From a virus (Duplodnaviria > Caudoviricetes): a DNA stretch of 42,170 nt. Below, in pieces: positions 1-42,170 of this stretch. The translations under genes were made by a program, and so were the position numbers. Position 1 is the first letter of the stretch. Each line of letters begins with the position of its first letter. The stretch is taken from positions 1 to 42,170 of the IMG/VR virus record IMGVR_UViG_3300033420_000012; one strand, 5' to 3'. The notes beneath the pieces were generated by a model. That model was given only the letters and a program-made list of their open reading frames with translations. It searched no databases and was not told the DNA's origin.

Positions 1-186
1 TTTTTTCCTTCCTCGGACTCACTCCTTCCTCGCATCCTCAGATGCACGCCTTTTTTTCCTTCCTCGGACTCACTCCTTCCTCGCATCCTCAGATGCACGC
101 CTTTTTTTCCTTCCTTCCTCGCATCCTCAGATGCACGCCTTTTTTTCCTTCCTTCCTCGCATCCTCAGATGCACGCCTTTTTTTCT
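1..186. repeat. Tandem repeat array (51-bp units, then 38-bp deletion variants), continuing from the window end
   Basis: Core CTCGCATCCTCAGATGCACGCC at 29, 80, 118, 156; bases 1-94 are identical to 42077-42170. Confidence 0.95.
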
Positions 187-189
187 CTC

Positions 190-620
190 TCCTTCCTTTG
201 TACGTCCATCGAGCAGTCTTTGATATGATTGTCTATTTTGTAGTACACGAGCAAAGGGACAAAACGTGATAGCTTCTTTTGTCTTCTGCTTTTGTGTTTC
301 GTCCATCGAGCATTCTTTTTATGTCTGGCTATGATGACGCCGACGAGTAAAGGTACAAAACGTGACAGCGTAAGGTATTCTTGTTTGATGCGACGGCTCC
401 GTCCGTCGTTCTCCCTTTCTTGCCGTGATGTAGTATCCTGACATGATACTGTTCTTCGTGATTTCGTAGTGTTGTCTTGATTGGTAGCTTCTTTGTTACG
501 CACATCGAGCAGTCTATATATCTCTGGCTATCTGTCGGTCCCGAGTAAAGGTGCATGACGTACTTGGCGTACTTCTTTTCTGTTGCTTTCTCGACGGCTC
601 CGTCCGTCGTTCTCCATTGA
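190..620. repeat. Degenerate ~100/200-nt repeat units
   Basis: CATCGAGCA at 207/304/503; CGAGYAAAGG at 248/344/542; identical 24-mer CGACGGCTCCGTCCGTCGTTCTCC at 391 and 592. Confidence 0.8.
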
Positions 621-1635
621 GGAATCCTTTACGGTGAACCTGTAGTAGCAAACAATCATGGGATTCGTAGTACGTGATTCACTGTGAGGGTGGGTGGTGG
701 GCTGACTGCGGATGCAGGCAGGTACTGCGTCCCTGCTGTGCGTGATTTCTGGTTGCGATGGAAGGTGAGATCGAGATGTCTTGTCTTGTGTTCATCTCGA
801 GATCTCCATCGCTAGCGTACGTGACAGGGACATACGTGTTGCATGACGATGCAATTCGTAGTGAATAGGTCTGCATACATAGCAGGTCTTGTCTTGTGTT
901 CCTGCTGTGTATGCAATCCGCTGGCTTGCATTGATAAGATTGTCTTGCAATCTGTCCTTCTTTGATTATACTTGGATTGTCTTTTAGTCGCACAACTCTG
1001 TTCGACCTGCGATCTTTTCTTTTCAAATGACCAATGGAATACTTGATAGTATTTATTCTATGGCTGTGTGTGTATCTCGATTCGTAGTGTTATGTATGTG
1101 TATAGTAATAGGTGTATCTGTGTGTGTATGATGATTCATTGGATAGCTGGTTGCTGTCTTGATTCTTTGGATAGTGTATGGTTGTCCAAACAATTAAAGA
1201 TTGTTTTGCTTTCTTCTGTTGGATCTTTCATGTGTTGCACATGACACGCTCTCTATTCTCCACGCACAGAACTGTACGTATGTGTGTGCATGATGTGTGT
1301 TAGCTGGCTTTCGTAGTATATATGTGTATGTTATATATAGGTATACATACATGTATCGTGCTGTGATTGTTTTATTGTAATTCTTTTGAATTAAATCTTG
1401 AAAAGATTTTTGATTTTGTTTTTTTGAAATTGTTTTTGATAAAACTTTTGGAAAAGTTTTTTTGTTTTGAATAAAATAAATAATTATTTGTTTGAACTTT
1501 GATTTGAATTGAATTTGTTTTGTGTATTTATTATTATATTATTGTTTACACATATATGAGGAGGGAGTGCAACCCCAATGAGTACACACATATATATATC
1601 TACCACCCCTCACACAATTTTTCCTCAAATCGCCA

Positions 1636-1706
1636 AGCCACATAGTGGCTTTCTCTTCCATGCCAGCCACTCGTGGCTCCTTCTCTACTCCAAGCCACTC
1701 GTGGCT
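1636..1706. promoter_or_regulatory. Three AGCCAC-N2/3-GTGGCT inverted repeats (candidate protein-binding sites)
   Basis: Palindromes at 1636-1650, 1665-1678, 1693-1706, spaced 28-29 bp, just upstream of the packaging operon. Confidence 0.55.
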
Positions 1707-1730
1707 TTCTCTTTAGTTGTCTCCTCTCCC

Positions 1731-2030
1731 ATGTTTTTTAAGAAGTGACATCCCCATGCCCCCAGAATTAGAGGCCCTGAGAAGGCGAAGCCTTTTTTTC
1801 TTCATATCTACGGGCAACGTGGGCCGATGGACCCTGTGAGGATTGTTGGGGATTTCGAGAGTTTGAAGCTGTTGCATAGTGCCATTGGGTATGCGATCAG
1901 GGATGAGGCCTTTTTGCAGTATCCTCGTACGAATGTGAACACGCAGTGTTCTGATGGGGTTGGGTTTTCGGTTGGTGTTGAACTTTCTAAGGACGGGGCT
2001 GGGCTCTTGTTACCTTATTTTATTTCTTAG
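1731..2030 (+). CDS. Hypothetical protein upstream of terL (99 aa, MFFKKGHPHAP...)
   Basis: ATG after a pyrimidine-rich leader; one in-frame TGA joins it to ORF 1827-2030; TAG stop. Confidence 0.65.
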
Positions 2031-2041
2031 GTTGTTTCTTT

Positions 2042-3598
2042 ATGGGTGATATTTCTGTTGGTGATGATGGATTGGCCATGCTTGAGTTTGGCAAGAATAT
2101 GGCTGATAAGAATTGGAGGATGACGAGTGGGATGCTCTATAAGGTGAAGAATAAGAGCGGGGAGATTGTCCCTTTTATTCCTAATATGTTTCAGGCTTGG
2201 TATCTCAAGACGAAGCATAAAAGGAACTTGTTTTTGAAGGTGAGACAGGTCGGGGTGAGTACGGTTATTCAGTTGGATTATTTTGATGATATGGCTTTTA
2301 GTTGATTGAATTTGATGTGTGGTGTGATTACGCAGGATAGGGAGGCGACGCAAAGGTTGTTTGAGGATAAGATATTGTTGGCGTTTAATAATTTGCCGTC
2401 GTTTGTAAAGGAGCAGTTTACTGCGGATACGGATAATGCGAATCAGTTGACGTTGACGAATAGGATGACTGGGGCTACTGGAACGTTTAGGGTGGCGACG
2501 TCGTTTAGATCGGGTACGATCCAGAGGTTGCATGTATCGGAGTTGGGACCTATTGCCACGGCTGATCCTTTGAAGGCGAGAGAGATCAATAAGGGATCTA
2601 TCGAGGCTGTGGCTATTGATGGGATGGTGAGTGTCGAGAGTACGTCGTCTGGGGATAGTGGATTGTTTTATGATATGTGTGAGATGTATAGTAAGAAGGA
2701 CCCGAAGACGTTATCGCCTTTGGATTTCAAGTTTTACTTCTTTCCTTGGTATTTACAGAGTGAATATGAATATAGTGGGTTTGTCCATATTACGGATGAG
2801 TATGTGAAGTACTTTGCGGATTTAGAGAGGGATTGGGGTGTTGTTTTGTCTGATTCGAAGAAGAAGTGGTATGTCTTGAAGTCTGAGCAGAAGAAGCTGA
2901 CGGGGAAAAATGATATGTTTCAGGAGTACCCGAGTGTCTATAAGGAGGCGTTTTGGGCGAGCGTTGAGGGAGCGTATTTTGATCAGAAGTTTGATACGAT
3001 TATGGCACAGGGGAGGATTAGTAATGTGCCGTATGATCCCGCAGGGTTTGTGTATACGGTTTGGGATTTGGGTTGAGGTGGTTGAGGTGATGACACTGTT
3101 ATTTGGTGGTTTCAGGTATTCGGGAATGAGATAAGGTGGATAGATTATTGGGAGGGGAACGATCAGGATTTGCTCCAGACTATCAATTTCCAGGTTAAGA
3201 CGAAGCCATACAGATATGGGAGGCATATTGGGCCACATGATTTGATGGCACATCATGGGTATCAGCAGACAAGGTTTCAGCTGGCTAGGAGCAATGGGAT
3301 TGAGTTCTTTGTCGTTCCGCAAGTGGGGAAGTCGGAGACAATCCAGTTGGCGAAAAATATACTGTCGCAAAGTTGGTTTGATAAAAATAAAACTTTGACT
3401 TGATATTCCAGATTAAAAAGGTATAAGAAAAAATACGATAGGGGTTCTGGGAAGACATTGAACTTTCCTGATCATAATGAAGATAGCCATGCGTCCGATG
3501 CTTTTCAGTACGGTTCTTGGCGAGTTACACATGTTTTGGGTTTTAAGCCGAAGGCGTCGGTTGCTCCTGTGTCTTTTCTTGGTGCGAAGTATAAATAG
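2042..3598 (+). CDS. terL: Terminase large subunit (518 aa)
   Basis: LKVRQVGVST Walker A, LHVSE Walker B, ESTS motif III, WDLG and PDHNEDSHASDAFQY nuclease motifs; continuous when TGA=Gly. Confidence 0.95.
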
Positions 3599-3621
3599 TT
3601 TTTATTTTCTCTTCTTTGTCT

Positions 3622-5502
3622 ATGGCTTGATTCATACAACTTTCTAGCAATGATGCTGTTCTTGCTGGTGATCAGATCAATTATGAGTGGGCATTGTCGA
3701 CGGCACATGCGAATCAGAAAAAGATTGAGTTTCAAGAGAGGAAAAAGGATTTTTTCCTTTGACCTGATCTGACTGACCCGATGAAGTCGAGGATAAATTT
3801 GGTCTATGAGAATGTGAATAATCTCATGGGGTTTTTTCTTATGAATAAAATGTCTGTGGATTTTAGAGGCAGGGCATCTGACGAGAAAAGACTTGACCTT
3901 GTAAATAAGAAGGCGGAGTCTGATTATAGAAAGATGAAAATGGACAGAGTGGAACACGATAGTCTATTTGATATGTTTTTGTGTGGTCCTGGTATTACGA
4001 TGTTTGATGGATATTTGGTTGGTAGGAATTGTCCGATCGTTTCGTCTCGTGATGTGACGACATTTAATCCTGATCCCGTAGGGCGAGGTGATATTGAGAA
4101 CTTTAGATTTTTTGGGTTTGATGGATATATGACGAAACAGGAGATGTTGGATAGGAAATATGTGAATTTGGAAAATCTTGTACTTCCGAAGGATAGAAAA
4201 GATTTGTTGAAGGATTACACGGAGAATACGTTGATGTCGTCTGCGTATTATCAGGTGTATCATCATTATTTCAAGAAGAATGGGTTGAGGTATTTGGCAA
4301 CTGTTACTCGTCCCGATGGGGAGAAGTCGAAGACGTTGTTAGTACACAATTTGGTACAAATTGATGTGAAGGTTGATGGTGAGTATGTTTGGCCTGGTGT
4401 TATTGAGTATTTTTTTCCGCAAAGGAATAGCTGGCATGGATGATCTGTTTACGATCTGACATATGATAAACAGACTGCTTTGTCTTGTCTTTTCAATTCT
4501 GCTATCTACAAGACTGTTAGGGCGAGCGTTTGAGCGAGTGTCTTGGTTGATGATTCTTTGACCAATTTGGAGAACTTTAGGAATCTGACGCTTGATCCAA
4601 AGGTTATTCCTGTTGATACATCTGGTGGGATTAAGAAGCTCGCTGATATGTATCATGAAGTTGAGAGAAATGTCGCTCCTGATGATACGTATACTTTACA
4701 GGATAGGCTTTACAAACGTGCTTTCGCTGAGTCTGGTACAGAGATGGGTGAAGTTGGTGATCGTGCGACATCACAAGAAGTGAAAGTTGCTAATGCTCCG
4801 CAGGAGGCTCGTATGTGATTGATCGACAAAAGGAGATATCGAGCGAAGGGAGATTTTTGGCAGAAGTGGTATGCTTTGACATCTTGTTTTATGTCAGAAT
4901 ATAAGATAAACGCCGAGTTTTCTTTGCCTTGACGTTATAGAAGTAGATATTTCTCTGTGGATAGTAGTACTTTTAAGGAAAATGATTGTCTGGATGTCTT
5001 TGTTGTGTCTAAACGTGATGAGGATGCGGAGAATGATGCTATTTTGATCGATTACATGGCAATTTATGCTATTATCTCGGAGATTGCGAAGGATAAGTTG
5101 AACTATACGTCAGAGATTAGGAAAGCAGCTCGTTATATGTTGAAATTGAAAGGTTTTGGATCTGACGAGGTATCCGAGTTTGTCCCCTTATCGTACGATG
5201 AATCGAAAGCGTCCGAACAGGCTCGTCTTTTGAAGGATGGTGTCGATGTTACTGGGTCGAAGACTGATTTATGGCAAGATCATGAGGCGTATTTGTCAGA
5301 GTTTTGACAGCTTAATCCTACGATGTTGGTCCAGAAAGCTATTGACGAACGTAGTAAGATGCTTTCGAATAGGATACAGGAGGAAAAGAGAGTTGAGCTC
5401 GCTTCTTTGAAGTCCTGAGGGACGAAAAAGAAGACTGGCGATACATCGAATGCTATAAAGAACCAGCTTGTGTCGAGTACGATTGCGAAATCTAAAAAAT
5501 AG
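3622..5502 (+). CDS. Portal protein (626 aa)
   Basis: Directly after terL and of typical size; fragments 3781, 4543, 4957 share one frame joined by TGA; TAG stop. Confidence 0.8.
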
Positions 5503-5533: not shown

Positions 5534-5992
5534 ATGGCAAAACATAAAGTGAAAGTCGCCGAAGGCGATTTGTCTATTGAACAATCTCCTATGAATGGTC
5601 CGAATCCAGAATTCGTTCCGATGGAACTTCCCCAGGTCGCCGAAGGCGATTTGTCTATTGAGCAACCAGCTATGGTTGATGGCCAGCCTGTTCGTGCTGA
5701 TGGTGGTTATGGTTCTCCTGAAGCTAGCGAAAGCGTCCCGATGGAGCTTCCCGAGGTCGACGAAGTCGACAAAAATTTTGAGGATGCTGTTATTGGTGTT
5801 GATCCTGCTGAAGTCGGTGGTGATGAAACTGTCGTCGAGTATGAAAACCTAGTTTTCGATAATCGACACGTGAAGCTCGCTGTTGGTTTAGTACTTCGTG
5901 GGTCTCATGATGATATGGTTATCGAGACAAACGATGGTATCACCTTGTGTTCCATCTCTGCTCCCGCTAGGACGTTCCCTGCTTTTGTGTAG
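5534..5992 (+). CDS. Acidic hypothetical protein with internal repeats (152 aa)
   Basis: VAEGDLSIEQ x2 and VPMELP x2; ATG after pyrimidine leader. Confidence 0.75.
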   Translation: MAKHKVKVAEGDLSIEQSPMNGPNPEFVPMELPQVAEGDLSIEQPAMVDGQPVRADGGYGSPEASESVPMELPEVDEVDKNFEDAVIGVDPAEVGGDETVVEYENLVFDNRHVKLAVGLVLRGSHDDMVIETNDGITLCSISAPARTFPAFV

Positions 5993-6027
5993 TTTATTTG
6001 TTTTTTATTTCTTTTTTTCTTTCTACC

Positions 6028-6483
6028 ATGCTAGAATTTGTTTATCCTATTAAGGATCTCGCCGATGCAAACTATGCGAGGCGTCTTGATTGTCTGCCAG
6101 AGCTCTATGATCTCTCTTTTGATGATGAGCTTCTGACATCTACCTCTTTGGATGTATTAAAGGGTTTTCTTCTTGCGTTGCAAGAAAAGCATATCACTCT
6201 TGTCACTCCTATTACGGCCACGCCGTTTGTCGTTGCGACAAACAATTGTGCTATTGTGGACATCGATACGAAGTGATCGTTTGTCCATGTTGATGGTGTC
6301 ATCCATACTGATAAGAAGGATGTCGCCGAGAAAAGAAAGGCGTTAGTTAGTATGAATGAGTCGCTTTGGACAAAGTGTGATGAGAATTATTATGTCATGA
6401 AGCAGTACGAGGCGATGATCGCTTTCGTAAAGAAAGCTATCCGTAAAAAACAGAATTTCTTCCAGAGACTTTTACCTCTTTAA
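6028..6483 (+). CDS. Hypothetical protein (151 aa)
   Basis: Open with one TGA; pyrimidine leader; TAA stop. Confidence 0.75.
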
Positions 6484-6496
6484 CCTCTTTTCCTCC

Positions 6497-7042
6497 ATGC
6501 CTGGTTTTTGACAAACAACTTCTCTCGGTTGAGCTTCTGTGACTATTGATTTGGATGGTGGTGATGGTTCGCAAGAGCTCAAGAGAGCGATGCAGAAAGA
6601 TAGGGTTGACCGTATTATGGAAAAGTATGGTATTCGCCCTATTGATAAGACTGACCATCACCGTTTTGTCCTTTATAATATCCAAGAGTCCGATCGACCT
6701 ATTTTGACACAGCATTTCAAGCAGTGCAAGATGCAACAGTGAATGCCTTATGAAGACTTTGATTTTGGCGTAGCCCAGATGAGATATGTCGAGATGAATG
6801 GTGACAAGCCTGTTTGACTTTCTCCTGATATCAATTATGAGAGATTTCTCGCAGAAGATAAAGAGAAACATCCTGAGGCGTACAAGAAGAAGGAGGATTG
6901 AGAGACTGAAAGGTCTTCTGACAATTCTCAGATGATGGACATGATGAAGACGATGTTGACCGAGATTACTGGTTTCAAAGAAGAGTACGACGCCGATAAG
7001 GCGGAGACTATGAGAAGACTCAAACTGTTGGAGTCAAAATAA
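6497..7042 (+). CDS. Hypothetical protein (181 aa)
   Basis: Open through several TGA; pyrimidine leader; TAA stop. Confidence 0.75.
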
Positions 7043-7066
7043 TTTTATTTCTTTCCCCTCTTTTCC

Positions 7067-7459
7067 ATGGCAAAAGTTTTAGATAGCGACGAAGAAGAAG
7101 TGGCAACGCCCGATCTTCGTGCTTTACTTGCTCGTCTTCATAATGATATCCTACCCAAGATTCTTGAGGTAGATAAAAAATGTGATTTTTTGATTTCTAA
7201 TAATGGTCTCGATGAGACATATAAGAAATTTCTCGCTAAAGGTAGCGATGATAGTTTTCTAAAGCCTGCCAAGGCTGTTTGTGAGTTTTATGGGTATCCT
7301 CTTTGTCAGTTAGAAAATGTCCATTTCTGGGCTGGTATCAACGTTAGGAAGCAAGAGCATCTTGATATCTTGTTCGCTTATTGGGATTTTAAGTCTATTT
7401 CGTATTCTGTCGATAATTTTACCGTTACCCCTTTTGAAAAATGACAAAAGAACAAATAG
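7067..7459 (+). CDS. Hypothetical protein (130 aa)
   Basis: ORF-track ORF extended through TGA 7442 to TAG. Confidence 0.75.
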
Positions 7460-7728
7460 ATGCCGTCGATGCAATGTGCAAGATGCCATGATGGGCGGTT
7501 CTTTCGTCTGTGATTAACGATACACTCCACGACGTGGAGAAGATTATTTTGAATGGTATGGTCCCCGAGGAGGAAAAGATGTCTTTCATCGCTCGTCGTC
7601 GGTTTCTAAAGTATATGCTTTCTTTGCCTGCTGATCTTTTTAAGAGTTACAAGAATTTTATGAATACTCCCCTTCCTGGATCTTCCACGTCGAATGCGGA
7701 TTTTGTGAAACAATATAAGTTGTACTAA
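7441..7728 (+). CDS. Small head-module protein (95 aa)
   Basis: MTKEQIDAVDAMCKMPGWAVL...; lies between portal and scaffold. Confidence 0.7.
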
Positions 7729-7764
7729 TTTTCTCTTGCTTTTTATTTTTTTTCCCTTATACCC

Positions 7765-8457
7765 ATGCCAAATCAACTTCCGCCAGTTCCAGGCATAAAC
7801 GGATCGCCTACTTGAGGCACAAATCAAGGCTGACAAGTCGTTACTCCGAATCAACAATGACAAGATGGAATGAATGGACAGGCACCTGCATGACAGCAAC
7901 CCTCTGGGACTGATCGACTGCAAGCATTGTACGCTCAATCTCCACAACTCGAAACTTACTTAAAACATTTGGAATCTGAAGCTAGAAGACCCCTTTTGGC
8001 AAAGGTCAACATCCTCTCGGAGGAATTGAACAATGCAAAGAAGGGTGGTACTCCTCAATGACCACAGTCTGGTGACGATCAACAGAAAGGGAAAGACAAG
8101 CCCTTGACGTTGTGAGACCTTGATGCGTATTTCAATAATAGGCAAAATGCTGAGAAAGAAAGTGCTGAGAGTCAAAGAGTCGAACAGGAAAAAGGTGCAT
8201 TCGTGCAAAAGTTTCCCGAAGCGATTCCGCATCTCGAAGTCCTTCCTAACATACGCAAGATGCTTGGGCTTTCCTATGAGTGAGCTTGGAAGTTTTTTCA
8301 AAATAATATACTCCCACAATGAAATATACAAGGCGTCCCCGCATGATCTCAAGCTAGCAACACCAATACATCCACTGCATGAGCAGGTGGTGTGCCTGGT
8401 GCGAAAGGTCCGAGTCGTGACGATGCTGAAAAGGTTTTTTGAGCAAAGTACCTATAG
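7765..8457 (+). CDS. Capsid scaffolding protein (230 aa)
   Basis: Absent from the standard-code track (about 10 TGA); Q/G/P-rich N-terminus and charged helical core; immediately upstream of the capsid gene. Confidence 0.75.
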
Positions 8458-9510: not shown

Positions 9511-10296
9511 ATGACTCCTAATTTAACTGATAGTCAGACTTCCTTCAAGTCTAATAGGATTGCAAGACAAATGCAAGAAAACTATATGATCGAAAATTTC
9601 AAAAACCTTCCTATGGGTTCTTTGATTTCTGGTAAAGGTATTCCTGTTGTCACTGATGCTACGTATAATCTTTTGTATGTAGGTGCAAGTGTCCTTTATA
9701 CATGGAATATCAATGCACAAGCTTTGATTATCCCTGCATATAATGCGAATGGTTTGGATATTTCTATGGACCAAACTGCTGGTGATGGAATCGAAATCTC
9801 TCCTGCTTATGGTGTCAATGCGAATACAAGATTTGGTTTCGTTATCGATACTGCTCCTAAGGGTTTCTTCGTAAGAGCAAAGATTTCTGTATCTGATGTG
9901 TCTGATGTTGCTGAATTGTCTGTTGGGTTTAGAAAGAACGCTACTGCGGCTAATGCTCTTTCTTCTCATACTGATTATGCTCTTTTGCAATTGATCGCTG
10001 GAGATATCAAGACAGAAACTAGATTGAATACTGGTACTGCTAGTACTGTCGATACAACTCTTAATTGGGCTGATGCTGGAACATACACTCTCAGAGTTGA
10101 TGTTGCTGTGAATGGCAAAACTACGTTTACCGTTCTTGATAGTAATGATGTTGTTGTTTCTACTGGTTTTGTTTCTCAAGATTTCCAATTTGACACTGGT
10201 GATACAGTTATCCCTTGTATTAGACAAATTCTCGGAACTGATGGGACTTGTTCTATCATCCTTAAAGAATTTGAATGTGGATACCAACATGTGTAA
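9511..10296 (+). CDS. Putative virion structural/decoration protein (261 aa)
   Basis: Beta-rich ORF right after the capsid gene; no TGA; codon usage similar to the capsid gene. Confidence 0.65.
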   Translation: MTPNLTDSQTSFKSNRIARQMQENYMIENFKNLPMGSLISGKGIPVVTDATYNLLYVGASVLYTWNINAQALIIPAYNANGLDISMDQTAGDGIEISPAYGVNANTRFGFVIDTAPKGFFVRAKISVSDVSDVAELSVGFRKNATAANALSSHTDYALLQLIAGDIKTETRLNTGTASTVDTTLNWADAGTYTLRVDVAVNGKTTFTVLDSNDVVVSTGFVSQDFQFDTGDTVIPCIRQILGTDGTCSIILKEFECGYQHV

Positions 10297-15225: not shown

Positions 15226-15243
15226 TTTTTATCTTTTGTTTTC

Positions 15244-15816: not shown

Positions 15817-15827
15817 CCTCTTTTTCT

Positions 15828-16487: not shown

Positions 16488-16491
16488 TTTT

Positions 16492-23873: not shown

Positions 23874-23897
23874 CTTTTATTTCCTTCCCCTTTTCCT

Positions 23898-25897: not shown

Positions 25898-25917
25898 TTT
25901 TTAATCCCCTTTTTCTC

Positions 25918-26178: not shown

Positions 26179-26201
26179 TTTTATCTATTCTCTGTTTTCC
26201 T

Positions 26202-30429: not shown

Positions 30430-30453
30430 ATTTATCTTTTCAAATTTACTTTT

Positions 30454-31221: not shown

Positions 31222-32551
31222 TATCGACGCCGAAAAAGGCGTGCTTGGTGGTGCGATGATTGACCAAAATCTTTTGTTCTCATATGAATGACTTTTATTA
31301 TCCTATGCGGATTTTTACAAAAGAGATCATCAAATAATCTATAAAGCAATTTGTGCTGTACATAGTGAAAACAAGGTTGTTGACTCTGTCACTGTTGCCG
31401 AACAACTGGTCAAAATGTGAGAGATTGAAAACATCTGACAAGACTATTTGTTTGATCTGCAAACGCATCTTTTGACTACGTCGTCTTGTGGTGAGTATGC
31501 CCAAATCGTAAAAGAATGCTCTATCTACCGTCAAACTCTCAACAATTTGAGGAAATTATCTTGCTATTGTATGGAACAAAGACCACTCGAAGAGATACAA
31601 AGTTTTATGGAAAAGTCGTATACCGAGATGATTTGAACGAATAATGAGCTTGATTTCTGCGATGAAATACCTACATTTCAAGCCGAACTCTATGCTGAGA
31701 AAAGATCATCTTTGTCTTCTGGTTTTGGTCTGATTGATACCATGCTGACTGGTGGCGGCTTTAAGCGTGGACAATTAATTTGTGTTGCTGGGAGGCCATG
31801 AACTGGTAAGAGCTCGATCATGACGTGCCTTGCTATGGAACAGATTGAAAAGTACAAGGTCGCTATGTTTTCGTTAGAGATGGGCAAAATGGAAATTGCT
31901 TATAGGCTTGTGTCTTATAAAAGCCAAATATCATATCATATCATCGACACTGGTGTTTCTACTCGGGACGATTATCAAAAGGAAATCATCCCCCTTACTT
32001 TCGATCACATCAAAGAAACTTGACTAAAGATTTATGATAAAAAGTTTACTATCCAGGATATTAAAGGCACGATCAGAAAGTTGAAACTCACAAAAGGGCT
32101 TGATATCGTGTATATTGATTATTTGCAATTGATAAAGCAGGTTGATAGTAGGGAAATGAGGTCTGCGTTTATCGGTTCCGTGACTAGGGAATTGAAAAGA
32201 TTGGCAAAGGAAATGGATATTGTTGTTGTTATTGGCTCTCAATTAAATAGGGAGGTTGAGAAAAGGGTCGAGAATACACCCAAACTTTCCGATCTTCGTG
32301 AGAGTTGAGATATCGAACAGGATTGTGACATTGTGGTTTTTCTCTCAAACGAGGAAGAATGCAATGACCCGATCCAGCAAAAAAACGTTATTGTCGCCAA
32401 GCAAAGAAATGGCCCTAAGGGTTCTATCCCTATGAGTTTTGTTTGTAATACTATGACGTTACAAAATAAAAAGTTTGCATATCGTCCACCTGTGTCTGTT
32501 GTTGTATCTTGAAGAAGTCAGTCTATCGACAACTCGTGACGGTGAAAATAG
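31184..32551 (+). CDS. dnaB: Replicative DNA helicase (455 aa)
   Basis: PPHNIDAE, AGRPGTGKS, FSLEM, IDYLQL, SQLNR, DLRESGDIEQD and KQRNG motifs. Confidence 0.95.
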
Positions 32552-32580
32552 TCAGTTTTATTATTTTTCTTTTTTTTCTC

Positions 32581-33018
32581 ATGCTCCATGTTGTCACTTC
32601 TCCGCTCTTTGTTCGTACTGCTAAAAAAGAGACAGGGAAAAAATACCGGATAAACCTAAACAACTTCAACAAACGGAAAGGTTATGGATATAACAATATC
32701 AAGAAAGCATACTGTGATCAGATAGCTAAACAACTTGTCTGATTGAAAATTGACTGATCTCTTGAGATCTCGTACCAACTAATCCGCTATTACAAAGTTG
32801 GTAAGGGTAGGAAAGATAAATGAAATGTTTTGTCGGCGATCCAGAAGTTCTTTTTGGACTCTCTCGTCGAGTTGTGATACCTTCCCGACGATAATGATGA
32901 AATGATAGACAAAGAAATCTTTCCAAAACCCGCATATATTCAAGACAAGCTAAAGACTGCTGACGATAGTGTCGTCGTTATTACACTTACTACCAAAGAC
33001 GATATTCGACGTGTCTAA
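32581..33018 (+). CDS. RusA-like Holliday junction resolvase (145 aa)
   Basis: D.GN.....K...D.L...G...DDN catalytic pattern. Confidence 0.8.
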
Positions 33019-33074: not shown

Positions 33075-34142
33075 ATGGTCAAAACCCAAAAAAATGGCGT
33101 AGTCGCCGAACCTGTCGAGACTGTTGTGTCTCAAGAAACTGTCGAACCTGTTTTCGATGTTGATGCACGAGATGAGTGAGATTTGCCGTCAAGCATGGTC
33201 AAGTCGCTTGTGCCAAATGCTCCGTATGAGTGAGCTGTTATGAAATCAAACTATGATCTTGACGCCTCTTTTGAGACTGACGACATGGACGATTTCGAAA
33301 GAACATTGCTTGCAATGCAAGGATGATCGACCTCCTCTGTCGCCACTCTTCGCTACAAAAGAGAGACTGACGATCAATGAGTTGTTACCTTTCAGGGGCT
33401 CATTGCTTCACGCCAAGGTGAGAAGACGAGAATATCCTGAGTTGAAAAAGTACAGTCAGGTCCAAACGCTCTTCCGTTGGAAACTCCTGTCATTATTCTT
33501 TTTAGAACCGAGAAGTATGATTTATGGGAAAAGGTAGGGAAAAAGAGCGATGCTCGTGGCAATTCTACCGAGTTCTTTCCAAGTATGAATCAGGTCGTTT
33601 TCACACATTATCCAATGTGACCATCGCCAAAGATGCCAAACGGTGAGTATATGCCGAAAGAGGATGTCCCTTTTGAAAACAAACATTTCAAATCGTTTAC
33701 TGATCTCAAGGAATATATGAAAGCTTTGAGGGCCGACGATTCTACTTTGAAACCTGATTGGATTATCGTTGTGTATCTCCTTTTCAAAAATGAGTTTAAC
33801 GAACGAGAACCTGCAAAAATGTATCTCAAATATACACAGTCCGCAGGTGCCAAATATGTTGGCGAAAAGGTAGTTGCTTTGCTTAACGATCCATTGCCTG
33901 GCACTTTGAAGAAACTTGATCGTGTCTATCGTACGCCTGTCCATATTCAAAAAACTTTCTCGATGAAATACGGTTGTTACAAGATGGGTGATACAAGTTT
34001 TGTCTCGTATCCTACCTTTGAAGCCGTAAACGCTACCGATCGTCCTAGTAATGACGTTTTGAAGTGACATTTGAGAGACATAATGGTTGATCTTACAACG
34101 AAATTAAAGACAAAACTTTCTGCTCCTTTTTTACCTGCTTAG
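33075..34142 (+). CDS. Hypothetical protein (355 aa), possibly ssDNA-binding/recombination
   Basis: Long open frame with TGA; function inferred from context only. Confidence 0.65.
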
Positions 34143-34152
34143 TTGTTTTCCT

Positions 34153-34605
34153 ATGTTACTTTATCGTATCGAGCCAAAAAAACACATTGTCCCTCTAACG
34201 TGACACCTGACTTGGTCTTGGTTTTGTGAGGTGTTTGATATAGTTCCAACGATAAAGCGTCTAAATTGGTATCGCAAGACGTGGGGGTTGCCGTTTATCC
34301 GTCTCCCCCACCCTCGCGAGCTATCTGATCATTTCGCTGACTTTTATGTTATGGATGCTCCAGAATTCAAAACGTGGCTTCATGAAAAAGCCCCTAATCT
34401 TTTACCTTTTTTCTCTTTTCGCAAATGCCACATCAAATCCCAGAGGGTCTTGAGTGATCTGCTCTTACAGATCTTGACCAAGCAATTACACAAGTTAAAG
34501 ATAGTCTTGCCGAAGCCGACAAATTCGCCTGACGTATTACCGATGGTGACTTCTCACCAAACACACACGGTTTGTTGAGTTTCCACAACAGGAGACTTTT
34601 CTTAG
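34153..34605 (+). CDS. Hypothetical protein; 3' end uncertain (overlaps next gene)
   Basis: Fills the gap after 34142 but runs 180 nt into the next ORF. Confidence 0.35.
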
Positions 34606-34916
34606 CATGATATGCAATCAAAATGAAGATGATCGAAGCCGAAAGGCTTTTGAAACATAAAAGGGTCGAGCTATCCGCATACTTTATGTCCGATGCTTAT
34701 ATTGTCGAGTCTCTTTGAAAGCCTTTGGCGAAGACTCCTGCGGACCAGAAAGCCAAAGACGATACTATTGATGAGCAAGCGTATATCGATCGCCTCGATA
34801 ATAATCATGAGTTATTGACTGGGTTTGCTAAACTTTACAATGAATCCTTGCAAATGGCTCGTGTAGCGATGGCAAAGACTGATGTTTCCCCTCGTGGCGA
34901 TATGGCTAGTATTTAG
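34425..34916 (+). CDS. Helical hypothetical protein (163 aa)
   Basis: Pyrimidine leader; in frame with track ORF 34725-34916. Confidence 0.7.
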
Positions 34917-34936
34917 TTTTTAACCCTCTTTCTTTT

Positions 34937-35185
34937 ATGATCCTTTCTCTCATATTTATTATTTCTGGCGTTCTTATTTGATACGTCGCTGGTAATGTCT
35001 ATCCCTACTATTTCTATGATTATGATGACGATGATGAAACAAGAGCTTTATTGAAAAGCTACGTTGCATTGTCAAACCGTCTTTTGAGACACTTGAGAAA
35101 CCTAAAAAAGCTCCTTGCTGATCGCAAACAGGATAATGATGATTTACTTGTTAAAAAGCTTATTGATGATTCCACATCGAAATAA
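34937..35185 (+). CDS. Small membrane-anchored protein (82 aa)
   Basis: Hydrophobic N-terminus; pyrimidine leader. Confidence 0.6.
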
Positions 35186-35531: not shown

Positions 35532-35897
35532 TTATCTTAAATCTCTATTGTCCGTTGTATTTCATACTATTTTCATTTCATCTACATCTATTATATCGAA
35601 TGAATCCTCCGACGTTAGCGTATTTATTTCAAACCTTGCTCGCGTCTCATCTCGTCTTACTTCGTATAGTGTATAACATCAACAGTTTCCAAATTCTTCT
35701 CTTAAAATGTCTCCAAAATATATCTCTTGTTCTTCTTTGTCTAAAAGTCATATAAATTGTCAAATTGAGTCTTCTTCTACTTCCGTTTTTGTTTCTGTTT
35801 TTCGATCGTGTATGTATGTTTTTTTTTGTTCTCCCATTAGACTTCCATAAACTCGTTTCCCCTTCTTCGTCTTTCATCTGAATTTTATTGTGTGCAT
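35532..35897 (-). CDS. YopX-family protein (121 aa)
   Basis: IKFRGK...GKWVYGSL, IGQFIGLLDK..EIY.GDIL and IVGN..DN motifs (require TGA=Gly and CGA=Trp). Confidence 0.85.
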
Positions 35898-35917
35898 TGT
35901 AAAAAAAAAGTAAAGAA

Positions 35918-36154
35918 TTAAAAAGGTCTTTGGACCTGGTACATTGTGATTATTTTCTGTTTGTCTTCGCTCAATATGTAGGTTCTCCATCATTTGGTCC
36001 ATATCCTGTATTTTCCATCATCTAGCTTTTTGATTGATACGACATTTCTCAAGTCTTCTTTAGCCTGCTCGGTATCTCCGAACTCTGCCATGGTTCTTTG
36101 ACACAGTTTAGCTTTTGCGTGTCCAGTAAATGAAATACTATCTATGATGCTCAT
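35918..36154 (-). CDS. Small protein resembling DUF4258-type folds (78 aa)
   Basis: FTGHAK.KL.QR N-terminus and IIT.Y C-terminus. Confidence 0.55.
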
Positions 36155-36234
36155 CGTAGTTTTAAAGTGAAGAAGTAAAATAGCCGTCACTTGGCAAAGG
36201 GTGGGTGGTGGGCTGATCCGCCTGGCGGTCAGGT

Positions 36235-36483
36235 CTATCCAATATATCTTTCTTCGCGATCCCCGCTTGGTACGTCCTCCCAAGTTTTGTACCCAAATTT
36301 TCCCAAGATCATAGTGTCCCATGGTTTCAGGTCTTCGCCTGGGCGTTTTCGTGGCTCTTCTTTAAGCTCCTGTTTGCTAATTTCCGCAAGCCTTCTTTGG
36401 ACGTTTGATCGGCTGTAAGGCTCCTTCTCGCCATAAGCCAACCTTTCGATTGATTGGTTTTCTGTTTGGATTGTTTCATACAT
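36235..36483 (-). CDS. Hypothetical protein (82 aa)
   Basis: ATG with conserved leader; TAG stop. Confidence 0.7.
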   Translation of the reverse strand: MYETIQTENQSIERLAYGEKEPYSRSNVQRRLAEISKQELKEEPRKRPGEDLKPWDTMILGKFGYKTWEDVPSGDREERYIG

Positions 36484-36507
36484 GAAAAAGTTGTGAAAAG
36501 ATAAAAA

Positions 36508-36672
36508 CTAAAAACATTTTCAACAAATACAATTTTTAATCACTCATCATTCTACATATCATTCACATACTTCTTCTATTATGTCTCTCAATTGTCCTTC
36601 TGATATTATATATCTTCATTCCATCATTGAGAAGTTTCTCAATTTCTCTATTATTTTTTTTGTGTAGTCCAT
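36508..36672 (-). CDS. Hypothetical protein (54 aa)
   Basis: Leader identical to that of 36483 (TTTTTATCTTTTCACAACTTTTT); open with TGA. Confidence 0.6.
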
Positions 36673-36690
36673 AAAAAAGTTGTGAAAAGA

Positions 36691-36717
36691 TAAAAAAGGC
36701 GAGTTTTTCGTACTCGC
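36691..36717 (-). terminator. Possible intrinsic terminator
   Basis: GCGAGT/ACTCGC stem followed by a T run on the - strand. Confidence 0.45.
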
Positions 36718-36779
36718 ACGCTTACGAGGCGACGCTGTCCTTTTGATTGGGGGATAGAAAACCATGAGGAAAAAATATA

Positions 36780-37772
36780 TTAAATCAATCTTCATGTTGT
36801 CCCATTGTTCTTTGCTTTCGCCAATGGATATATAGATGATCCCTTTGTCTCTTCGATTTCTCTCATAAAGTCTTGTATGTCTTTTATGTCTGATATTTTT
36901 CTGTTGATATCTCTGACCTTGTTTTCGATTGCTCTATCTTTTGCCCTGTCTTTCCTGTCTTGCCGTCTTTTCATTTCTTCCTCGTTGACTTCAATTTGTT
37001 CACTCATTATCTCGATCATATTTCTGCCGTCATATTCTAGCTCTGCAAGTTCTTGTCGTTTGTCGTTTTGTACCAAAATTAATCTTCTGCCAAGTTCCGC
37101 TTTTTCTTCTTCAAATTCCTTGATTGCAAGTTTCCCTTTTCTTCGTGCTTCTCTTGTTTTATTTTTTAGGTATTCCAAAGCTCCACCTTGTCAGAAGTCG
37201 ATCTTGATTTTTGCGTTTTCCATTCTTTCCATTTCGTATCGTGTGGCTTTTTGTCCTCCGTATTGCATCAACAAAAAAGCCTCCATTTCTCGTTTTTCTT
37301 TTTGTTCGTTTGGGCGGGTTCCGCAACCTTCGGTAATAATAAACTCTTTGTTATGATAGCCAAGTTTTACTTGTCGTGTTTTGTACATCTCGATTTCGTG
37401 ATCGTGTGCTCTTGCTTCTTTTTCGACTGTTTCGATAAAGTCACAAGTTCCATATAGTCGGAGTGTGCAAGACCCGCAATATCAAGACTTTTTTTGACTG
37501 TCTCTCTCTCGTTGTGACATTGATGTCTCCGCTCTTGTATAGCAATTTTCACCGTGTGTTACTTCTTGCCTAAGTTTGAGATTTCCAAGATTTATTTGCT
37601 CGGTGTCTATTCCTTTGATGTCGTAACGTCCAAAATTCTTTTGTCCGCCTCCGTTGAAATTGATCAGATGGACGAACCGCCTTTTTTCTGCGATGATTTT
37701 CTCGCCGTCTCTTTCTTGAATGATCAGGTCGTGTCCGTTGCCTGTGAGTGTTGCTGTTTTGATTGATGCCAT
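36780..37772 (-). CDS. Hypothetical protein with CxxC and C-terminal coiled coil (330 aa)
   Basis: Track ORFs 37482-37772, 37191-37388 and 36792-37178 form one frame joined by TGA. Confidence 0.75.
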
Positions 37773-37806
37773 GTGAAAAAAAAAGTGAAAAGAAATAAAA
37801 AGGTTT

Positions 37807-37974
37807 TTAGTTTATAGGTGCAAGCTCTGTTTCTCGAAATATGTGCCCACTTATTCGATACGCTGGCTTATTGTCTTTGTCTTTTATTATGCCTTCGATT
37901 TTTCCTTGGTTGTTCCGCTTTTGTAGACATTTGATTTTTACTATTTGTCATATTTTGAATTTTGCTTGTGTCAT
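37807..37974 (-). CDS. Small SH3/KOW-like protein (55 aa)
   Basis: KFKIGQIVKI..G.I.GI pattern; conserved leader. Confidence 0.6.
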
Positions 37975-38001
37975 AGGAAAAGTAGGGGGAAAAAATAAAG
38001 G

Positions 38002-38313
38002 TTAGTCTCCGACGTACTGTGCAAGGTTTTCTCTTACCATGATAAGATGACCATGGTTCTCTTTTGCTATTCTTGCCTCTTCGATGTTAGCTGTCACCTG
38101 TGAGCTTTTGGACAAGATCCGCATTTCGCCCTCGATGTAGTATTTGCCGTTTTTGGTGTCCCAAAGTCGACCCCATCCATCATAAAGCTGGATTGGTTCG
38201 AGAAAAAGCCGTTGTTCTGCCCCTGATTTTGGGTTTTGGCTTTTTATATAAAATAATCCGTTGTTTTGTGCTTTTCTTAATTCTTCTTTGGTGCAAGTGA
38301 TTGTGCCTTTCAT
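38002..38313 (-). CDS. Hypothetical protein (103 aa)
   Basis: Track ORF with leader; TAA stop. Confidence 0.7.
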   Translation of the reverse strand: MKGTITCTKEELRKAQNNGLFYIKSQNPKSGAEQRLFLEPIQLYDGWGRLWDTKNGKYYIEGEMRILSKSSQVTANIEEARIAKENHGHLIMVRENLAQYVGD

Positions 38314-38342
38314 GTGAGAAAATTGGTTAAAAAATAAATTTG

Positions 38343-38684
38343 TTATATTGTTGATATTTCTAGTTTTTCTGCAAATTCGTTTAATTCTATTAGTTGATCT
38401 GCAAGTTCTTCATGTGATGTCCGGTTTAATTGGTAGCCTGTCGCAAATTGTGCAAACACGTTGCGTCATAATATTCTCTTGTGTATGTAAAATTTTAAAT
38501 CTTCGGGATCTTCGTTTCATGTGTCTCTGTCGCAATAATACTTTAATGGTAGCATATCTTGTTTATCATTATTAAACATAAAATCTATACTTTCTATCCG
38601 TCTATACGCTTTTTCTCCTTTGTTGCTTTTTATTACTTCGTGAAATACGAGTGTTTTGATTATGTTTTGCTTTTGTGTTGTCAT
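38343..38684 (-). CDS. Hypothetical protein (113 aa)
   Basis: Conserved leader TTTATTTTTTCCCCCACTTTTCC; open with two TGA. Confidence 0.65.
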
Positions 38685-38712
38685 TGGAAAAGTGGGGGGA
38701 AAAAATAAAAAG

Positions 38713-38826
38713 TTATATCATCTTCTGTAATCTGTATCTATACTCCTTTATGTCTGATCTGCGTTTGTCTTCTCTCAATATGAGGAATGCCAACACTGGC
38801 ACCCCCAACAATAGAATCATAAACAT
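38713..38826 (-). CDS. Small membrane peptide (37 aa)
   Basis: Hydrophobic N-terminus; coupled TAATG with the upstream gene. Confidence 0.5.
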   Translation of the reverse strand: MFMILLLGVPVLAFLILREDKRRSDIKEYRYRLQKMI

Positions 38827-39260
38827 TATATAGTGTGGTTAGGAGATAAAAGGGTCATTTCTTCCGTCTGGTATTGTGCAAAGAATGCCTTGAAAGTGAA
38901 ATTGAAAGGCTTGTCTTCATCTTTCCCAAACATTGGTATTGCTAGGTAGCAACCTTTTGATCCTTTCTTTATTTTCCTTCCTTGGTTTCTCCATTGGTTG
39001 CTGGTGCCGTAGGTGCTGGCTGTGTATCATACGCCGTTCTCGTCTCTTTGCTCTATGAGTGTTTTTATGTTGTTTATGGAAAAGTCTTTGCCTCATACCT
39101 CGGAAATCTTAAAAAATCCCCCTGCAAGTATGCCCTGTAACATTGCCAGATTGTCCCCATCTAGCTCGGCAAGCTTTGTTTTTGCTGATCTTTCGGCGAT
39201 GATCCTGTTTTCTGTTTTCTCAAATACTTTCTTTTCTTCTTTTTTTTGTGCGTAAATCAT
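38826..39260 (-). CDS. ArdC-like ssDNA-binding domain protein (144 aa)
   Basis: FS..N...L..Q and YGTSNQWRNQGRKIRKGSKG motifs. Confidence 0.75.
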
Positions 39261-39652: not shown

Positions 39653-39715
39653 ATGCAAACAATGAAACCGTAGGTCACAAGCCAAAAGAAAATGCAAAAA
39701 AAGTCCAATAATCCC

Positions 39716-39743
39716 TTGCAATCTCAAGAAAAATCAGTATATA
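39716..39743 (+). promoter_or_regulatory. Rightward promoter
   Basis: TTGCAA-N16-TATATA preceded by AAAAAAGTCCAA, as at 24.6 kb. Confidence 0.5.
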
Positions 39744-39787
39744 GATGATGAACAAAAAAACTCTCTATCTCCTAACCCTCTAACACC

Positions 39788-40042
39788 ATGTCACAATCTG
39801 AAACAATCAAAAACCTCCAAACACAAATCGAGCAAGTCAAGGGCTACCTCCCAAAGATCAACGCCGAACGTCGTCAGCTCCACATGTCAGTCAAAAACGG
39901 TACGACTGCCGATGAACTCCCAGTAAGATACTGGGAACTCACCAACATCAGAAAAAGAGGTGAGAGTATCATCGAAAGAAATACAAGACGAATCAAGGAA
40001 ATCATAAACAATAAAATGCAACCTATGGCACTCTGGGCGTAA
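39788..40042 (+). CDS. Helical hypothetical protein (84 aa)
   Basis: Track ORF downstream of promoters; TAA stop. Confidence 0.75.
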   Translation: MSQSETIKNLQTQIEQVKGYLPKINAERRQLHMSVKNGTTADELPVRYWELTNIRKRGESIIERNTRRIKEIINNKMQPMALWA

Positions 40043-40441: not shown

Positions 40442-40447
40442 TTGCTC

Positions 40448-40475
40448 TTGCAATTTGGGACTAAATCATTATAGT
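40448..40475 (+). promoter_or_regulatory. Promoter
   Basis: TTGCAA-N16-TATAGT. Confidence 0.6.
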
Positions 40476-40479
40476 CCTG

Positions 40480-40545
40480 TTGCGATCTGTTAGAGGGTTG
40501 CAAGCTGTTTTCCCTCCTCGTGCGTCTACATGGGAGGGTTTTCTT
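40480..40545 (+). ncRNA. Candidate ~65-nt small RNA
   Basis: Starts after the promoter; hairpin TTGCGATC/GGTTGCAA, then CCCTCC/GGAGGG hairpin plus T run. Confidence 0.4.
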
Positions 40546-40780
40546 ATTTTACGAGAAAATGTCTACGTTATGCCAAACTTGTATTTGATTCCGACATTGA
40601 TGTCCCCATGATAGGGAAAAGTGGGAGGAAAAAATAAACTGTATTCTCCCCAATGAGTGTAATGAGTGTCTTCGCCGTCTTCTGTTTTTTCTGCTATTTT
40701 GTTTTTTGTTTTTTTCTCGCCCGCACGGAGTGCGGGAGATCCCAGTCTGTGAGCCAGCTTTGAGGCTTGCCGAAAATGCC

Positions 40781-40808
40781 TTGATTTTATTGTAAAAGTT
40801 CGTATGAT
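40781..40808 (+). promoter_or_regulatory. Promoter upstream of terS
   Basis: TTGATT-N16-TATGAT. Confidence 0.6.
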
Positions 40809-40846
40809 AGATAAGGTGAGAATTTTATCCTTAAAAACCCCTTTTT

Positions 40847-41257
40847 ATGCCTATTTTAGAGAAGTCCCGAAGGGATGACCCTGTCAAATGTACGAGAGTG
40901 GAGAGCGTGCTCGCCCTCATCTCCAATGGGTATTGTGTAGGTGACGCCTTCATTAGAGCGAAGTTGCCGAAGACAACTATGAGGGGGCGAGTCGGTACGG
41001 AATATGAGGAATTGATTAAAGAGGCGGTTGCAAACCGAAGAATGCAGGTCAGCGACGTAGTTTCTGAGAAGATGAAAAAGGATTGATCCCTTGCTTTTAG
41101 AGTTCTCCAAAAGCTTGATAAGCGTTATTCCACCAAGAAAGAAGAGGCTCCCGAACAGAATCACCTAGTAAACATCTTTGTCAACTCTTATAGACAGACA
41201 ATGTGACTTGCTCCACTGCCAGAGGCAGGGATTATGGATTGAGATTTGGTGTCATAA
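40847..41257 (+). CDS. terS: Probable terminase small subunit (136 aa)
   Basis: HTH-like AF.RAKLPKTTMRGWV, then D..LAFRVLQKLD..Y; upstream of terL on the circle. Confidence 0.65.
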
Positions 41258-41345
41258 AAAGTCAAGCTTTGTATGGCGAAGCCAAAAAGGGAACTTTGCC
41301 CCAGCGTGCGGATGCACTCCTTTTTGGGCGGAGCCCACTTGACAA

Positions 41346-41372
41346 CCTCCCCAAAGGGAGGCTTTTTATTTC
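41346..41372 (+). terminator. Intrinsic terminator downstream of terS
   Basis: CCTCCC-CAAA-GGGAGG followed by CTTTTTATTT. Confidence 0.65.
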
Positions 41373-41374
41373 TT

Positions 41375-41936
41375 CCGAATTGGGCGAGCAACCGCATAGG
41401 ATAGCTAGAAAAAACGTGTCGATGCCCAGTATCTACACATTGTGGCACGATTTCCCATACGGCGTGCCCCCCGAAAGGCGAGGGGGGATACGACGCTCGT
41501 GCCTACGATGGATAGAAAACAGAAAATCCGCTGAAAAACATCTGCACGACGGTGCAGGTCATCATGAGATATCTCCTATCCATCCAAACTCATGGTCTGA
41601 CCTAAGGGGACGCTCGGAGGGATACCTTGCACAAGCCTCGTTGCCGACCCCTTGTGGGCTTGGGGGTGGTCGCCACCCCTTGGCAATGCGGACTTGTGCC
41701 AGAGAGAGGGAGTTTTGGCAGGTCTTGCCTTGTGTTCCTGCCAAAGGCGACCGAACGTGTAGACCTTCGATGCACTCGTCCCCTCCTGACTGTCCGAAAT
41801 GACGTGATTTAGGGTCTCGCTGGAGACTTCCGATGAAAAGTCAATGATGGCTTCTGACGATGCTTTGAGAAAAAATGCCCCGCGGGCGGAATGAATTGGG
41901 CTTTGCCTTCGCCCGCTTGACAATGCTTTGCATTGT
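41375..41936 (+). ncRNA. Candidate large structured RNA (~560 nt)
   Basis: GC-rich island with about 10 nested stems, a GAAA-capped hairpin and a possible pseudoknot; no ORF with the genome's leader. Confidence 0.5.
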
Positions 41937-42002
41937 TTCCTCGTATGTCTTTCTTCTTTTGGCTTCTCACCTTGCTTCCTTTTTTTTCCTCACCTCCCTC
42001 AC

Positions 42003-42170
42003 CTCGCATCCTCAGATGCACGCCTTTTTTTCCTTCCTCGGACTCACTCCTTCCTCGCATCCTCAGATGCACGCCTTTTTTTCCTTCCTCGGACTCACTC
42101 CTTCCTCGCATCCTCAGATGCACGCCTTTTTTTCCTTCCTCGGACTCACTCCTTCCTCGCATCCTCAGAT
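42003..42170. repeat. 51-bp tandem repeat, continuing into position 1
   Basis: Core at 42003, 42054, 42105, 42156. Confidence 0.95.

Follow-up and report, generated by a model that had tools for sequence, protein, structure and literature searches.

A probably complete, recoded and predicted short-tailed phage whose reassigned codons point to an Absconditabacteria (SR1) host

The single-contig virus record IMGVR_UViG_3300033420_000012 (42,170 bp, 39% GC), analysed here over its whole length and called the window below, probably represents a complete and likely lytic phage, predicted to be short-tailed. Its TGA codons are read as glycine and its CGA and CGG codons (together CGR) probably as tryptophan, so that it would be translatable only in a cell of the Absconditabacteria (SR1), its likely host. 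With TGA as a sense codon, open reading frames (ORFs) of at least 150 amino acids cover 82% of the window, compared with 23% under translation table 11 and 32% if TAG is the stop codon read through; this comparison ruled out TAG or TAA as a sense codon. The final set of 48 genes covers 85% of the window.

The phage belongs to a family of recoded relatives (G143, G144, G145, L113 and the more distant G044:C8) that share its head-gene order and its code in genomes of 37-43 kb. The first four are 55-61% identical to the window in the capsid and 41-42% in the terminase large subunit (TerL), and G044:C8 stands at 32%. Within 44 ORFs of the window, TGA makes up 324 of the 862 glycine codons, and the stops are TAA (29) and TAG (15). 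The window and relatives were translated with TGA, CGA and CGG blinded, and the residues opposite these codons were counted in matches of at least 30% identity; near-duplicate loci were included in these pair counts, so the pairs are not independent. The window's TGA codons stood opposite Gly or TGA in 82 of 118 pairs. Reading TGA as Trp (table 4) lowered the collagen score from 41 to 18 bits, abolished the LamG match and reduced the helicase, DnaB and SbcD scores. Judged by these alignments and scores, TGA is read as glycine across all gene classes.

The same alignments indicate that CGR is likely read as tryptophan, which would make CGA and CGG 68 of the window's 146 Trp codons, all mistranslated by a code-25 annotation. 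Opposite CGA (51 pairs, 7 columns) we found Tyr 15 times, Trp 9, Ser 8, CGA 8, Phe 4, CGG 4, Asp 2 and Val 1, and opposite CGG (22 pairs, 1 column) Trp 11 times, Leu 4, CGA 4, Phe 2 and CGG 1. Arg or Lys faced the window's CGR codons in none of the 73 pairs (8 columns), compared with 215 of 285 pairs for AGA, and positions with TGG in the window carry CGA or CGG in relatives in 39 of 189 pairs. When distinct columns were counted instead, using nine genes from the window and from 20 recoded relatives with six near-duplicates left out, CGA (n=37) faced Trp 15 times, Phe 7, Tyr 3, Leu 3, Arg 3 and Lys 2, and CGG (n=18) faced Trp 9 times and Tyr 3, so that 24 of the 55 columns read Trp family-wide. 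All three Arg columns facing CGA stem from one contig, G042:C7. The capsid protein carries a CGA at residue 202 and a CGG at residue 212, both in Trp/aromatic columns, and since this protein is abundant, the code could be checked by metaproteomics without culturing the host.

Profile scores were raised when CGR was translated as Trp: from 37.2 to 44.3 bits for YopX, from 110 to 119 bits (+9.3) for the capsid family PHROG 1357, by 1.3, 6.0 and 6.4 bits for three endolysin families, by 6.3 bits for the initiator and by 3.4 bits for a 689-residue protein. As controls, 19 dnaB genes of the Gracilibacteria order put CGA at conserved Arg columns (50 of 56), 34 dnaB genes of the SR1 order use neither CGA nor CGG in any conserved column, and CGA stands for Arg/Lys in the phage genes of G287 and G042:C7. 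Several observations weigh against the Trp assignment. It lowers the scores of RusA (by 0.1 to 1.0 bits), PHROG 98 (2.3), PHROG 267 (2.1) and the SbcD family PHROG 100 (1.6), the window's own CGR evidence amounts to eight alignment columns, and five CGR positions in SbcC and SbcD lie in columns that are variable in host homologues. The assignment coincides with the code that Shulgina and Eddy (2021; PMC8629427) predicted for Absconditabacteria, UGA as Gly with CGA and CGG as Trp; in Gracilibacteria, only CGG was predicted to be Trp, and in some members only. Their three reassignments were predicted for the bacteria and ours come from phage genes, which thus support the SR1 prediction of CGA/CGG as Trp independently of host genomes.

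The preliminary description of this DNA had stated that the packaging, structural, lysis and replication modules are all present. Family scans of the 48 ORFs bore this out for TerL, an N4-gp56-type capsid, endolysin, SbcD, SbcC, an SF2 helicase, DnaB and RusA, and also matched collagen, LamG, YopX and ArdC-N; the small terminase subunit (TerS) was not identified, and two giant genes found behind the tail hub in relatives are missing. TerL matched PHROG 2 (E 4e-17; 35-37% identity to annotated TerL), the major capsid protein matched TIGR04387 of the HK97 lineage (113.9 bits against a cut-off of 60), and the endolysin matched PHROG 6523/465. The portal and adaptor scored below the Pfam cut-offs (SU10_portal, 15 bits against 30; SU10_adaptor, 25.5 against 27), and the positions of both genes fit these roles. 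For TerS, the 99-residue ORF before terL had no family match, and a 136-residue candidate matched only itself in a protein search. The window contains no tape-measure-sized ORF and no long helical virion ORF; the phage is predicted to be a short-tailed (podophage-type) member of the Caudoviricetes.

The reported lack of tRNA, release factor, integrase and polymerase was confirmed: ARAGORN found no tRNA or tmRNA in the window, Rfam gave no match at E≤0.5, and the six frames yielded no match to integrase (PF00589), RF-1 (PF00472) or PolA (PF00476), families that were detected in 14, 10 and 10 of 14 control genomes, respectively. Because no integrase was found, the phage is likely lytic. No tRNA with a UCA, UCG or CCG anticodon was found in the 30 sequences scanned; single tRNA calls (Ile and Phe) occur in the relatives G144:C1 (41622-41711) and L113 (3088-3161), respectively.

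Residues 280-758 of the tail hub fold like the podophage hubs of Pa223, P22 (gp10), Sf6 and Pam1 (Foldseek E 2e-13 to 2e-11, TM 0.53-0.60). The model used had a predicted local distance difference test score (pLDDT) of 71, and the single-sequence model (pLDDT 36) was unusable; a wider hub search returned generic beta-propellers only. The hub shares with P22, Sf6 and Pam1 gp10 the place after the adaptor, and differs from them in its identity of about 10%, in the lack of recognisable ejection genes downstream and in an N-terminal extension of 280 residues rich in Ser, Gly, Lys and Ala. Among 1.84 billion representatives, this extension had no homologue beyond its own fragments, and the full-length hub homologues there measure 468-496 residues. 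The extension gave no match to a relative's first giant protein (E 5).

Directly behind the hub, G143, G144, G145, L113 and G044:C8, which are every recoded relative sequenced past this point, carry two giant genes encoding 836-994 and 878-2548 residues. From their size, place and helical make-up, they likely encode ejection proteins. The 2548-residue protein, encoded at 11000-18646 of G144:C1 (L149), contains an ART-PolyVal ADP-ribosyltransferase domain that is absent from its G143 counterpart. The complete relatives keep both giant genes and are without the window's SbcCD/helicase/DnaB module.

The giant proteins of G143, G144 and G044:C8 have no match in the six frames of the window (blastp E≤1e-3). 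Podophage ejection proteins have been described as necessary for infectivity (PMC8954989), which makes it difficult to reconcile their absence with a phage that is both complete and autonomous. No podophage without ejection proteins turned up in a limited literature check. The hub region is not misassembled. A diverged phage in run X2, from another study, bridges both the adaptor-to-extension (11231-11405) and the hub-to-next-gene (13455-13671) junctions, indicating that this arrangement characterises a lineage and is not due to damage in a single genome. The phage would have lost or replaced the giant genes, and small divergent substitutes are possible. A stronger proposal, namely a complete and autonomous SR1 podophage lineage that does without about 3,000 ejection residues, delivers its DNA by the hub extension and is locked to its host order by the reassigned codons, is tentative and may well prove wrong. 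If the genome is complete, a podophage lacking large ejection proteins raises the question of how DNA crosses the envelope of a Candidate Phyla Radiation (CPR) bacterium.

The overlap of the ends had been taken as a sign of completeness. The ends do overlap, but at 43 nt as well as at 94 nt, since 1-115 and 42002-42170 both consist of repeats of the same 51-nt tandem array; an overlap lying wholly inside this array gives no independent evidence of a closed circle. An interpretation of the array as a coding repeat was dropped, as the 38-nt unit breaks the frame. In run X1, which may be the source of the record, one contig corresponds to 156-18818 and another to 18795-22000 with 0 differences, a comparison that reaches as far as 22000 and leaves 22171-42170 outside it, and the X1 contig with the window's right-hand sequence stops inside the array, at 155. 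Judged by the depth over 1-400, only this one extra piece can be accommodated, and thus one array entry and one exit; this is arithmetic on 11 contigs over 1-12000, a set that filtering may have made incomplete. Two relatives whose capsids are 61% identical to that of the window are 42,203 bp (with a terminal repeat) and 42,680 bp long, and CheckV rates both as 100% complete. On the length of the relatives and the single entry and exit, completeness is probable, with fair assurance, though unproven.

Counting against completeness, the record, which is classed as having terminal repeats, has a CheckV estimate of 55%, and the shared 31-mer of the array reaches a depth of 350, and its 51-nt loop 180, against 30, about 1.7-2 times what a minimal join (6 copies) would give. 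The excess would be explained by a terminal repeat, by an array of greater length or by GC bias (the array has 50-53% GC). These values, together with the overlap inside a repeat and the missing giant genes, would also suit a phage with the same host and code whose contig is incomplete; its genome would contain two copies of the array, and the ejection genes would lie on an absent segment between them. We consider this unlikely: the 11 contigs allow one entry and one exit only, with another 8-10 kb the genome would reach 50-52 kb, although its capsid is 61% identical to the capsids of relatives of 42 kb, the relatives' giant genes lie directly behind the hub, where the window's contig is unbroken, and CheckV was perhaps misled by the code.

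The absence of both giant genes despite a P22-like hub could alternatively mean that the genome is complete and helper-dependent or defective, its ejection proteins being borrowed from a co-infecting family member. This seems improbable to us, since all other virion genes are intact, the same junctions recur in the diverged phage of run X2, and a DnaB of 90% identity is present on another contig.

We hold with high confidence that the host is a member of the SR1, as the preliminary description had suggested. The best named DnaB matches are to SR1 (38-40% identity, among the 120 matches listed), and the 55 top-ranking DnaB matches in 401 genomes of the class all fall in the order of G001, an Absconditabacteria genome. 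A quick DnaB tree that retained all 84 rows places the phage with the 34 rows of the SR1 order (SH-aLRT 100). Matches to the N-terminus of SbcC were found in 58 of 61 SR1-order genomes (best E 9e-29) and in 3 of 151 of the Gracilibacteria order (E ~1e-4), and the SbcD gene is likewise nearest to SR1 genomes. The Shine-Dalgarno core is absent from all 47 gene leaders of the window and occurs in 2 of 149 sampled SR1 genes. Four promoter-like sites were found in the window against 0.02 expected, and the extended promoter motif is present in 27 of 51 SR1-order and 8 of 51 Gracilibacteria-order genomes. The window's leaders are 81% pyrimidine, with gene starts partly chosen by that feature; under a mechanical start rule the value was 69%, compared with 48-57% in relatives and sampled SR1 genomes. 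The pyrimidine-rich leaders may point to a host subgroup.

Two points weigh against this host assignment. The phage DnaB lies on a very long branch, making its placement unsure, and the spacer match to Absconditabacteria that had been proposed as a check was not found, no CRISPR spacer or integrated copy linking phage and host being detected in 141 incomplete SR1-order genomes. In this search, 1-20000, 20001-40000 and 40001-41990 were compared by BLAST and the best 2 candidates per genome were scored. The matches were solely to low-complexity sequence, the promoter and sbcC/sbcD/dnaB, and none of 15 selected short matches lay in a repeat array.

Capsid homologues occur in 4 of the 141 SR1-order genomes (G044:C8, G091, G042:C7 and G045:C20). 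G044:C8 is a 37,385-bp circular phage with a 55-nt end repeat, TGA as Gly, CGR as Trp and no tRNA, binned in an SR1-order genome, and G091 comprises two recoded phage fragments in an SR1-order bin. Such bins also hold G042:C7 and G045:C20, so that binning alone is a weak host link. G042:C7 (L139) is a phage fragment with TGA as Gly and CGA as Arg/Lys whose capsid groups with Gracilibacteria-order copies, and is likely misbinned; G045:C20 (L144-L145) is a phage of 40.5 kb that uses the standard code and has Shine-Dalgarno sequences in 11 of 16 leaders, and is likely a contaminant.

A Gracilibacteria (BD1-5) host would share TGA as Gly, some members being predicted to read CGG as Trp (PMC8629427), and a capsid homologue is present in 3 of 204 genomes of that order. 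TGA therefore cannot separate the two orders; the reading of CGA as Trp and the SR1-type SbcC and DnaB can. CGA encodes Arg in the Gracilibacteria order and in its phage-like genes and is Trp-like in the window, leaving this host very improbable. Within the one family, CGA thus acts as a host barcode that separates SR1 from Gracilibacteria phages and flags misbinned contigs. In the Gracilibacteria-order genomes, TerL and capsid homologues (G287:C1, about 21.9-23.5 kb and 47.0-47.9 kb, L311 and L308; G199:C21, L307) sit among housekeeping genes with no portal match between TerL and capsid, and represent dispersed remnants or domesticated phage genes. An intact prophage in G287 was rejected.

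Early and late genes had been described as sharing one code, and this held: of the 42 classed genes, 37 contain TGA, namely 21 of the 25 late genes, all 12 replication genes and 4 of the 5 on the early side. The TGA share of Gly codons is 0.21 on the early side against 0.38-0.42 in the other classes, and CGR is commonest on the early side (16 of 19 Trp codons). The capsid gene uses TGA for 1 of 27 Gly codons and the decoration gene for 0 of 20, an avoidance seen in 6 of 7 relatives checked, which suggests that UGA is a poor codon for abundant proteins. In G143, the capsid and decoration genes have 0 of 28 and 1 of 20, compared with 26 of 34 in terL; near-exclusion from both genes was seen in G143, G144, G145, L113 and L096, with L114 as the exception. 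In five genomes, EF-Tu has 3-18 TGA codons against 13-25 in dnaB, lending weak support to a capsid-like avoidance in the host. The TGA share also follows the AT content of genes (rho -0.51 against GC, p 0.008, 26 genes).

The presence of TGA in all gene classes, the failure to detect a suppressor tRNA and the avoidance of TGA in the capsid genes support a host-matched code over a regulatory switch, as the preliminary description had proposed. Since the early genes carry TGA and CGR, a standard-code host would be unable to translate them at entry. Code-switching phages recode structural and lysis genes, with TGA as Trp or TAG as Gln (Borges et al., bioRxiv 2021.08.26.457843). That the window is such a phage of a standard-code host, with TGA timing the late genes, is hardly tenable: the lower early-side TGA share and the observation that suppressor tRNAs are often missed (Borges et al.) speak for it, but TGA must be read through in 4 of 5 early-side and all replication genes, only a single TGA occurs in the capsid gene, the early genes are the richest in CGR, decoding of CGA as Trp would be impossible in a standard host, and glycine is not what known switchers use TGA for.

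If the phage is a complete, host-decoded SR1 phage, its cycle might run as follows. Host tRNAs (UCA-Gly, UCG/CCG-Trp) would decode its genes from entry on, and host RNA polymerase would use the four sigma-70-type promoters for a leftward early operon with an ArdC-type anti-restriction gene, the replication operon and the late operon, the leaders without Shine-Dalgarno sequences fitting the host ribosome. The host replicase would copy the DNA with the phage initiator, DnaB, SbcCD and RusA, and TerL would pack about 42 kb into a capsid closed by the P22-gp10-like hub. The LamG, collagen and carbohydrate-binding module (CBM) proteins may attach to the cell surface, and the endolysin would lyse the cell. 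The 8-10 kb freed by the giant genes may have been taken up by replication and surface-protein genes, and our best guess is that DNA would be delivered by the 280-residue extension of the hub with small unannotated proteins.

The family has no close member in GenBank (TerL at most 37%, capsid at most 30% identity). Viral-contig scans with TerL, a 190-residue ORF and SbcC found no close relative, a scan with the protein P0001 gave one match at 29%, and the hub alignment yielded no usable pattern for such a scan. The statement that CPR phages are rarely described was too strong: Liu et al. (2023; PMC10746230) reported 50 spacer-predicted Absconditabacteria phages and 15 prophages. The code-25 phages of Liu et al. 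and Borges et al. likewise use TGA as Gly genome-wide to match their host, with about 90% of genes recoded (37 of 42 in the window), and differ in being linked to hosts by spacers or host prediction, whereas the window has no spacer link, and in being read with plain code 25. The terms 'CGA' and 'CGG' do not occur in the available main text of Liu et al., nor does 'CGG' in that on RSA-ATP1 (bioRxiv 2024.03.08.584096). By its description, RSA-ATP1 resembles the window in size (about 40 kb), code 25, lack of an integrase, endolysin plus holin and its Absconditicoccaceae host, but has four tRNAs including tRNA-Gly(TCA) and lambda-Red/Nin-like genes, none of which was found in the window. Two prophages reported with it are without tRNAs and rely on those of the host, as the tRNA-free window would. 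Shulgina and Eddy also noted two tRNA-less phages with AGG as Met that match a recoded host (PMC8629427). Dependence on host decoding is thus a known pattern, extended here to two sense codons, and the missing giant genes are the unusual point. Our literature search turned up no paper on CGA/CGG as Trp in a phage; the phage tables of Liu et al., which were outside that search, may list the window or its relatives.

Table 1. Coordinates and proposed assignments of features in the window.
Feature	Position	Strand
Left end: 2.3 copies of the 51-nt tandem array, continuing as 3.2 copies of a related 38-nt array; contains the 94-nt end overlap	1..197	
Right end: same 51-nt tandem array, 3.3 copies	42002..42170	
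Gene-poor, T-rich stretch	198..1730	
Predicted host-type promoter, TTGCAA and TATA separated by 17 nt; four such sites in the window	944..970	+
99-residue ORF directly before terL; TerS candidate by position, no family match	1731..2030	+
Terminase large subunit, 518 residues; identity 41-42% within the family and no more than 37% with GenBank phages	2042..3598	+
Portal, 626 residues, assigned from its position and its homologues in relatives; under the cut-off of Pfam SU10_portal	3622..5502	+
Six head-region ORFs including a likely scaffold (7765-8457); two common to most relatives	5534..8457	+
Major capsid protein, N4-gp56 family, 321 residues	8494..9459	+
Family-conserved 261-residue protein after the capsid gene; likely decoration	9511..10296	+
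Likely head-tail adaptor with carbohydrate-binding (CBM5/12) inserts	10378..11337	+
Tail hub, 758 residues	11337..13613	+
Nine likely tail/surface genes; collagen-repeat (15828-16487), LamG (20119-21381 and 21390-23291)	13603..23291	+
Lysis region: small membrane proteins (putative holin candidates), peptidase-type endolysin (24095-24565)	23372..24565	+
Predicted host-type promoter of the replication operon	24634..24660	+
SbcD (24893-25897) and SbcC (26202-28382), SR1-type	24893..28382	+
SF2 helicase (29248-30429), likely initiator (30454-31221), DnaB (31184-32551; SR1-type), RusA-like resolvase (32581-33018)	29248..33018	+
ORFs without family match, end of the replication operon	33075..35185	+
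Likely early operon, nine ORFs; YopX (35532-35897), ArdC-N anti-restriction (38826-39260); richest in CGA/CGG	35532..39260	-
Predicted promoter (39715-39741) and 84-residue ORF, divergent from the early operon	39715..40042	+
Predicted promoter (40447-40473) and 136-residue ORF (40847-41257), second TerS candidate	40447..41257	+

Two non-coding regions were also observed. At 40220-40355, two tandem 67-nt copies, 92% alike and without an Rfam match, lie between two small ORFs. Between the 136-residue ORF and terL, about 2.6 kb (41258-42170 and 1-1730) contain several repeats and no convincing genes, and this stretch is a candidate origin or genome end; in its place, directly before terL, relatives carry a gene of 161-337 residues.

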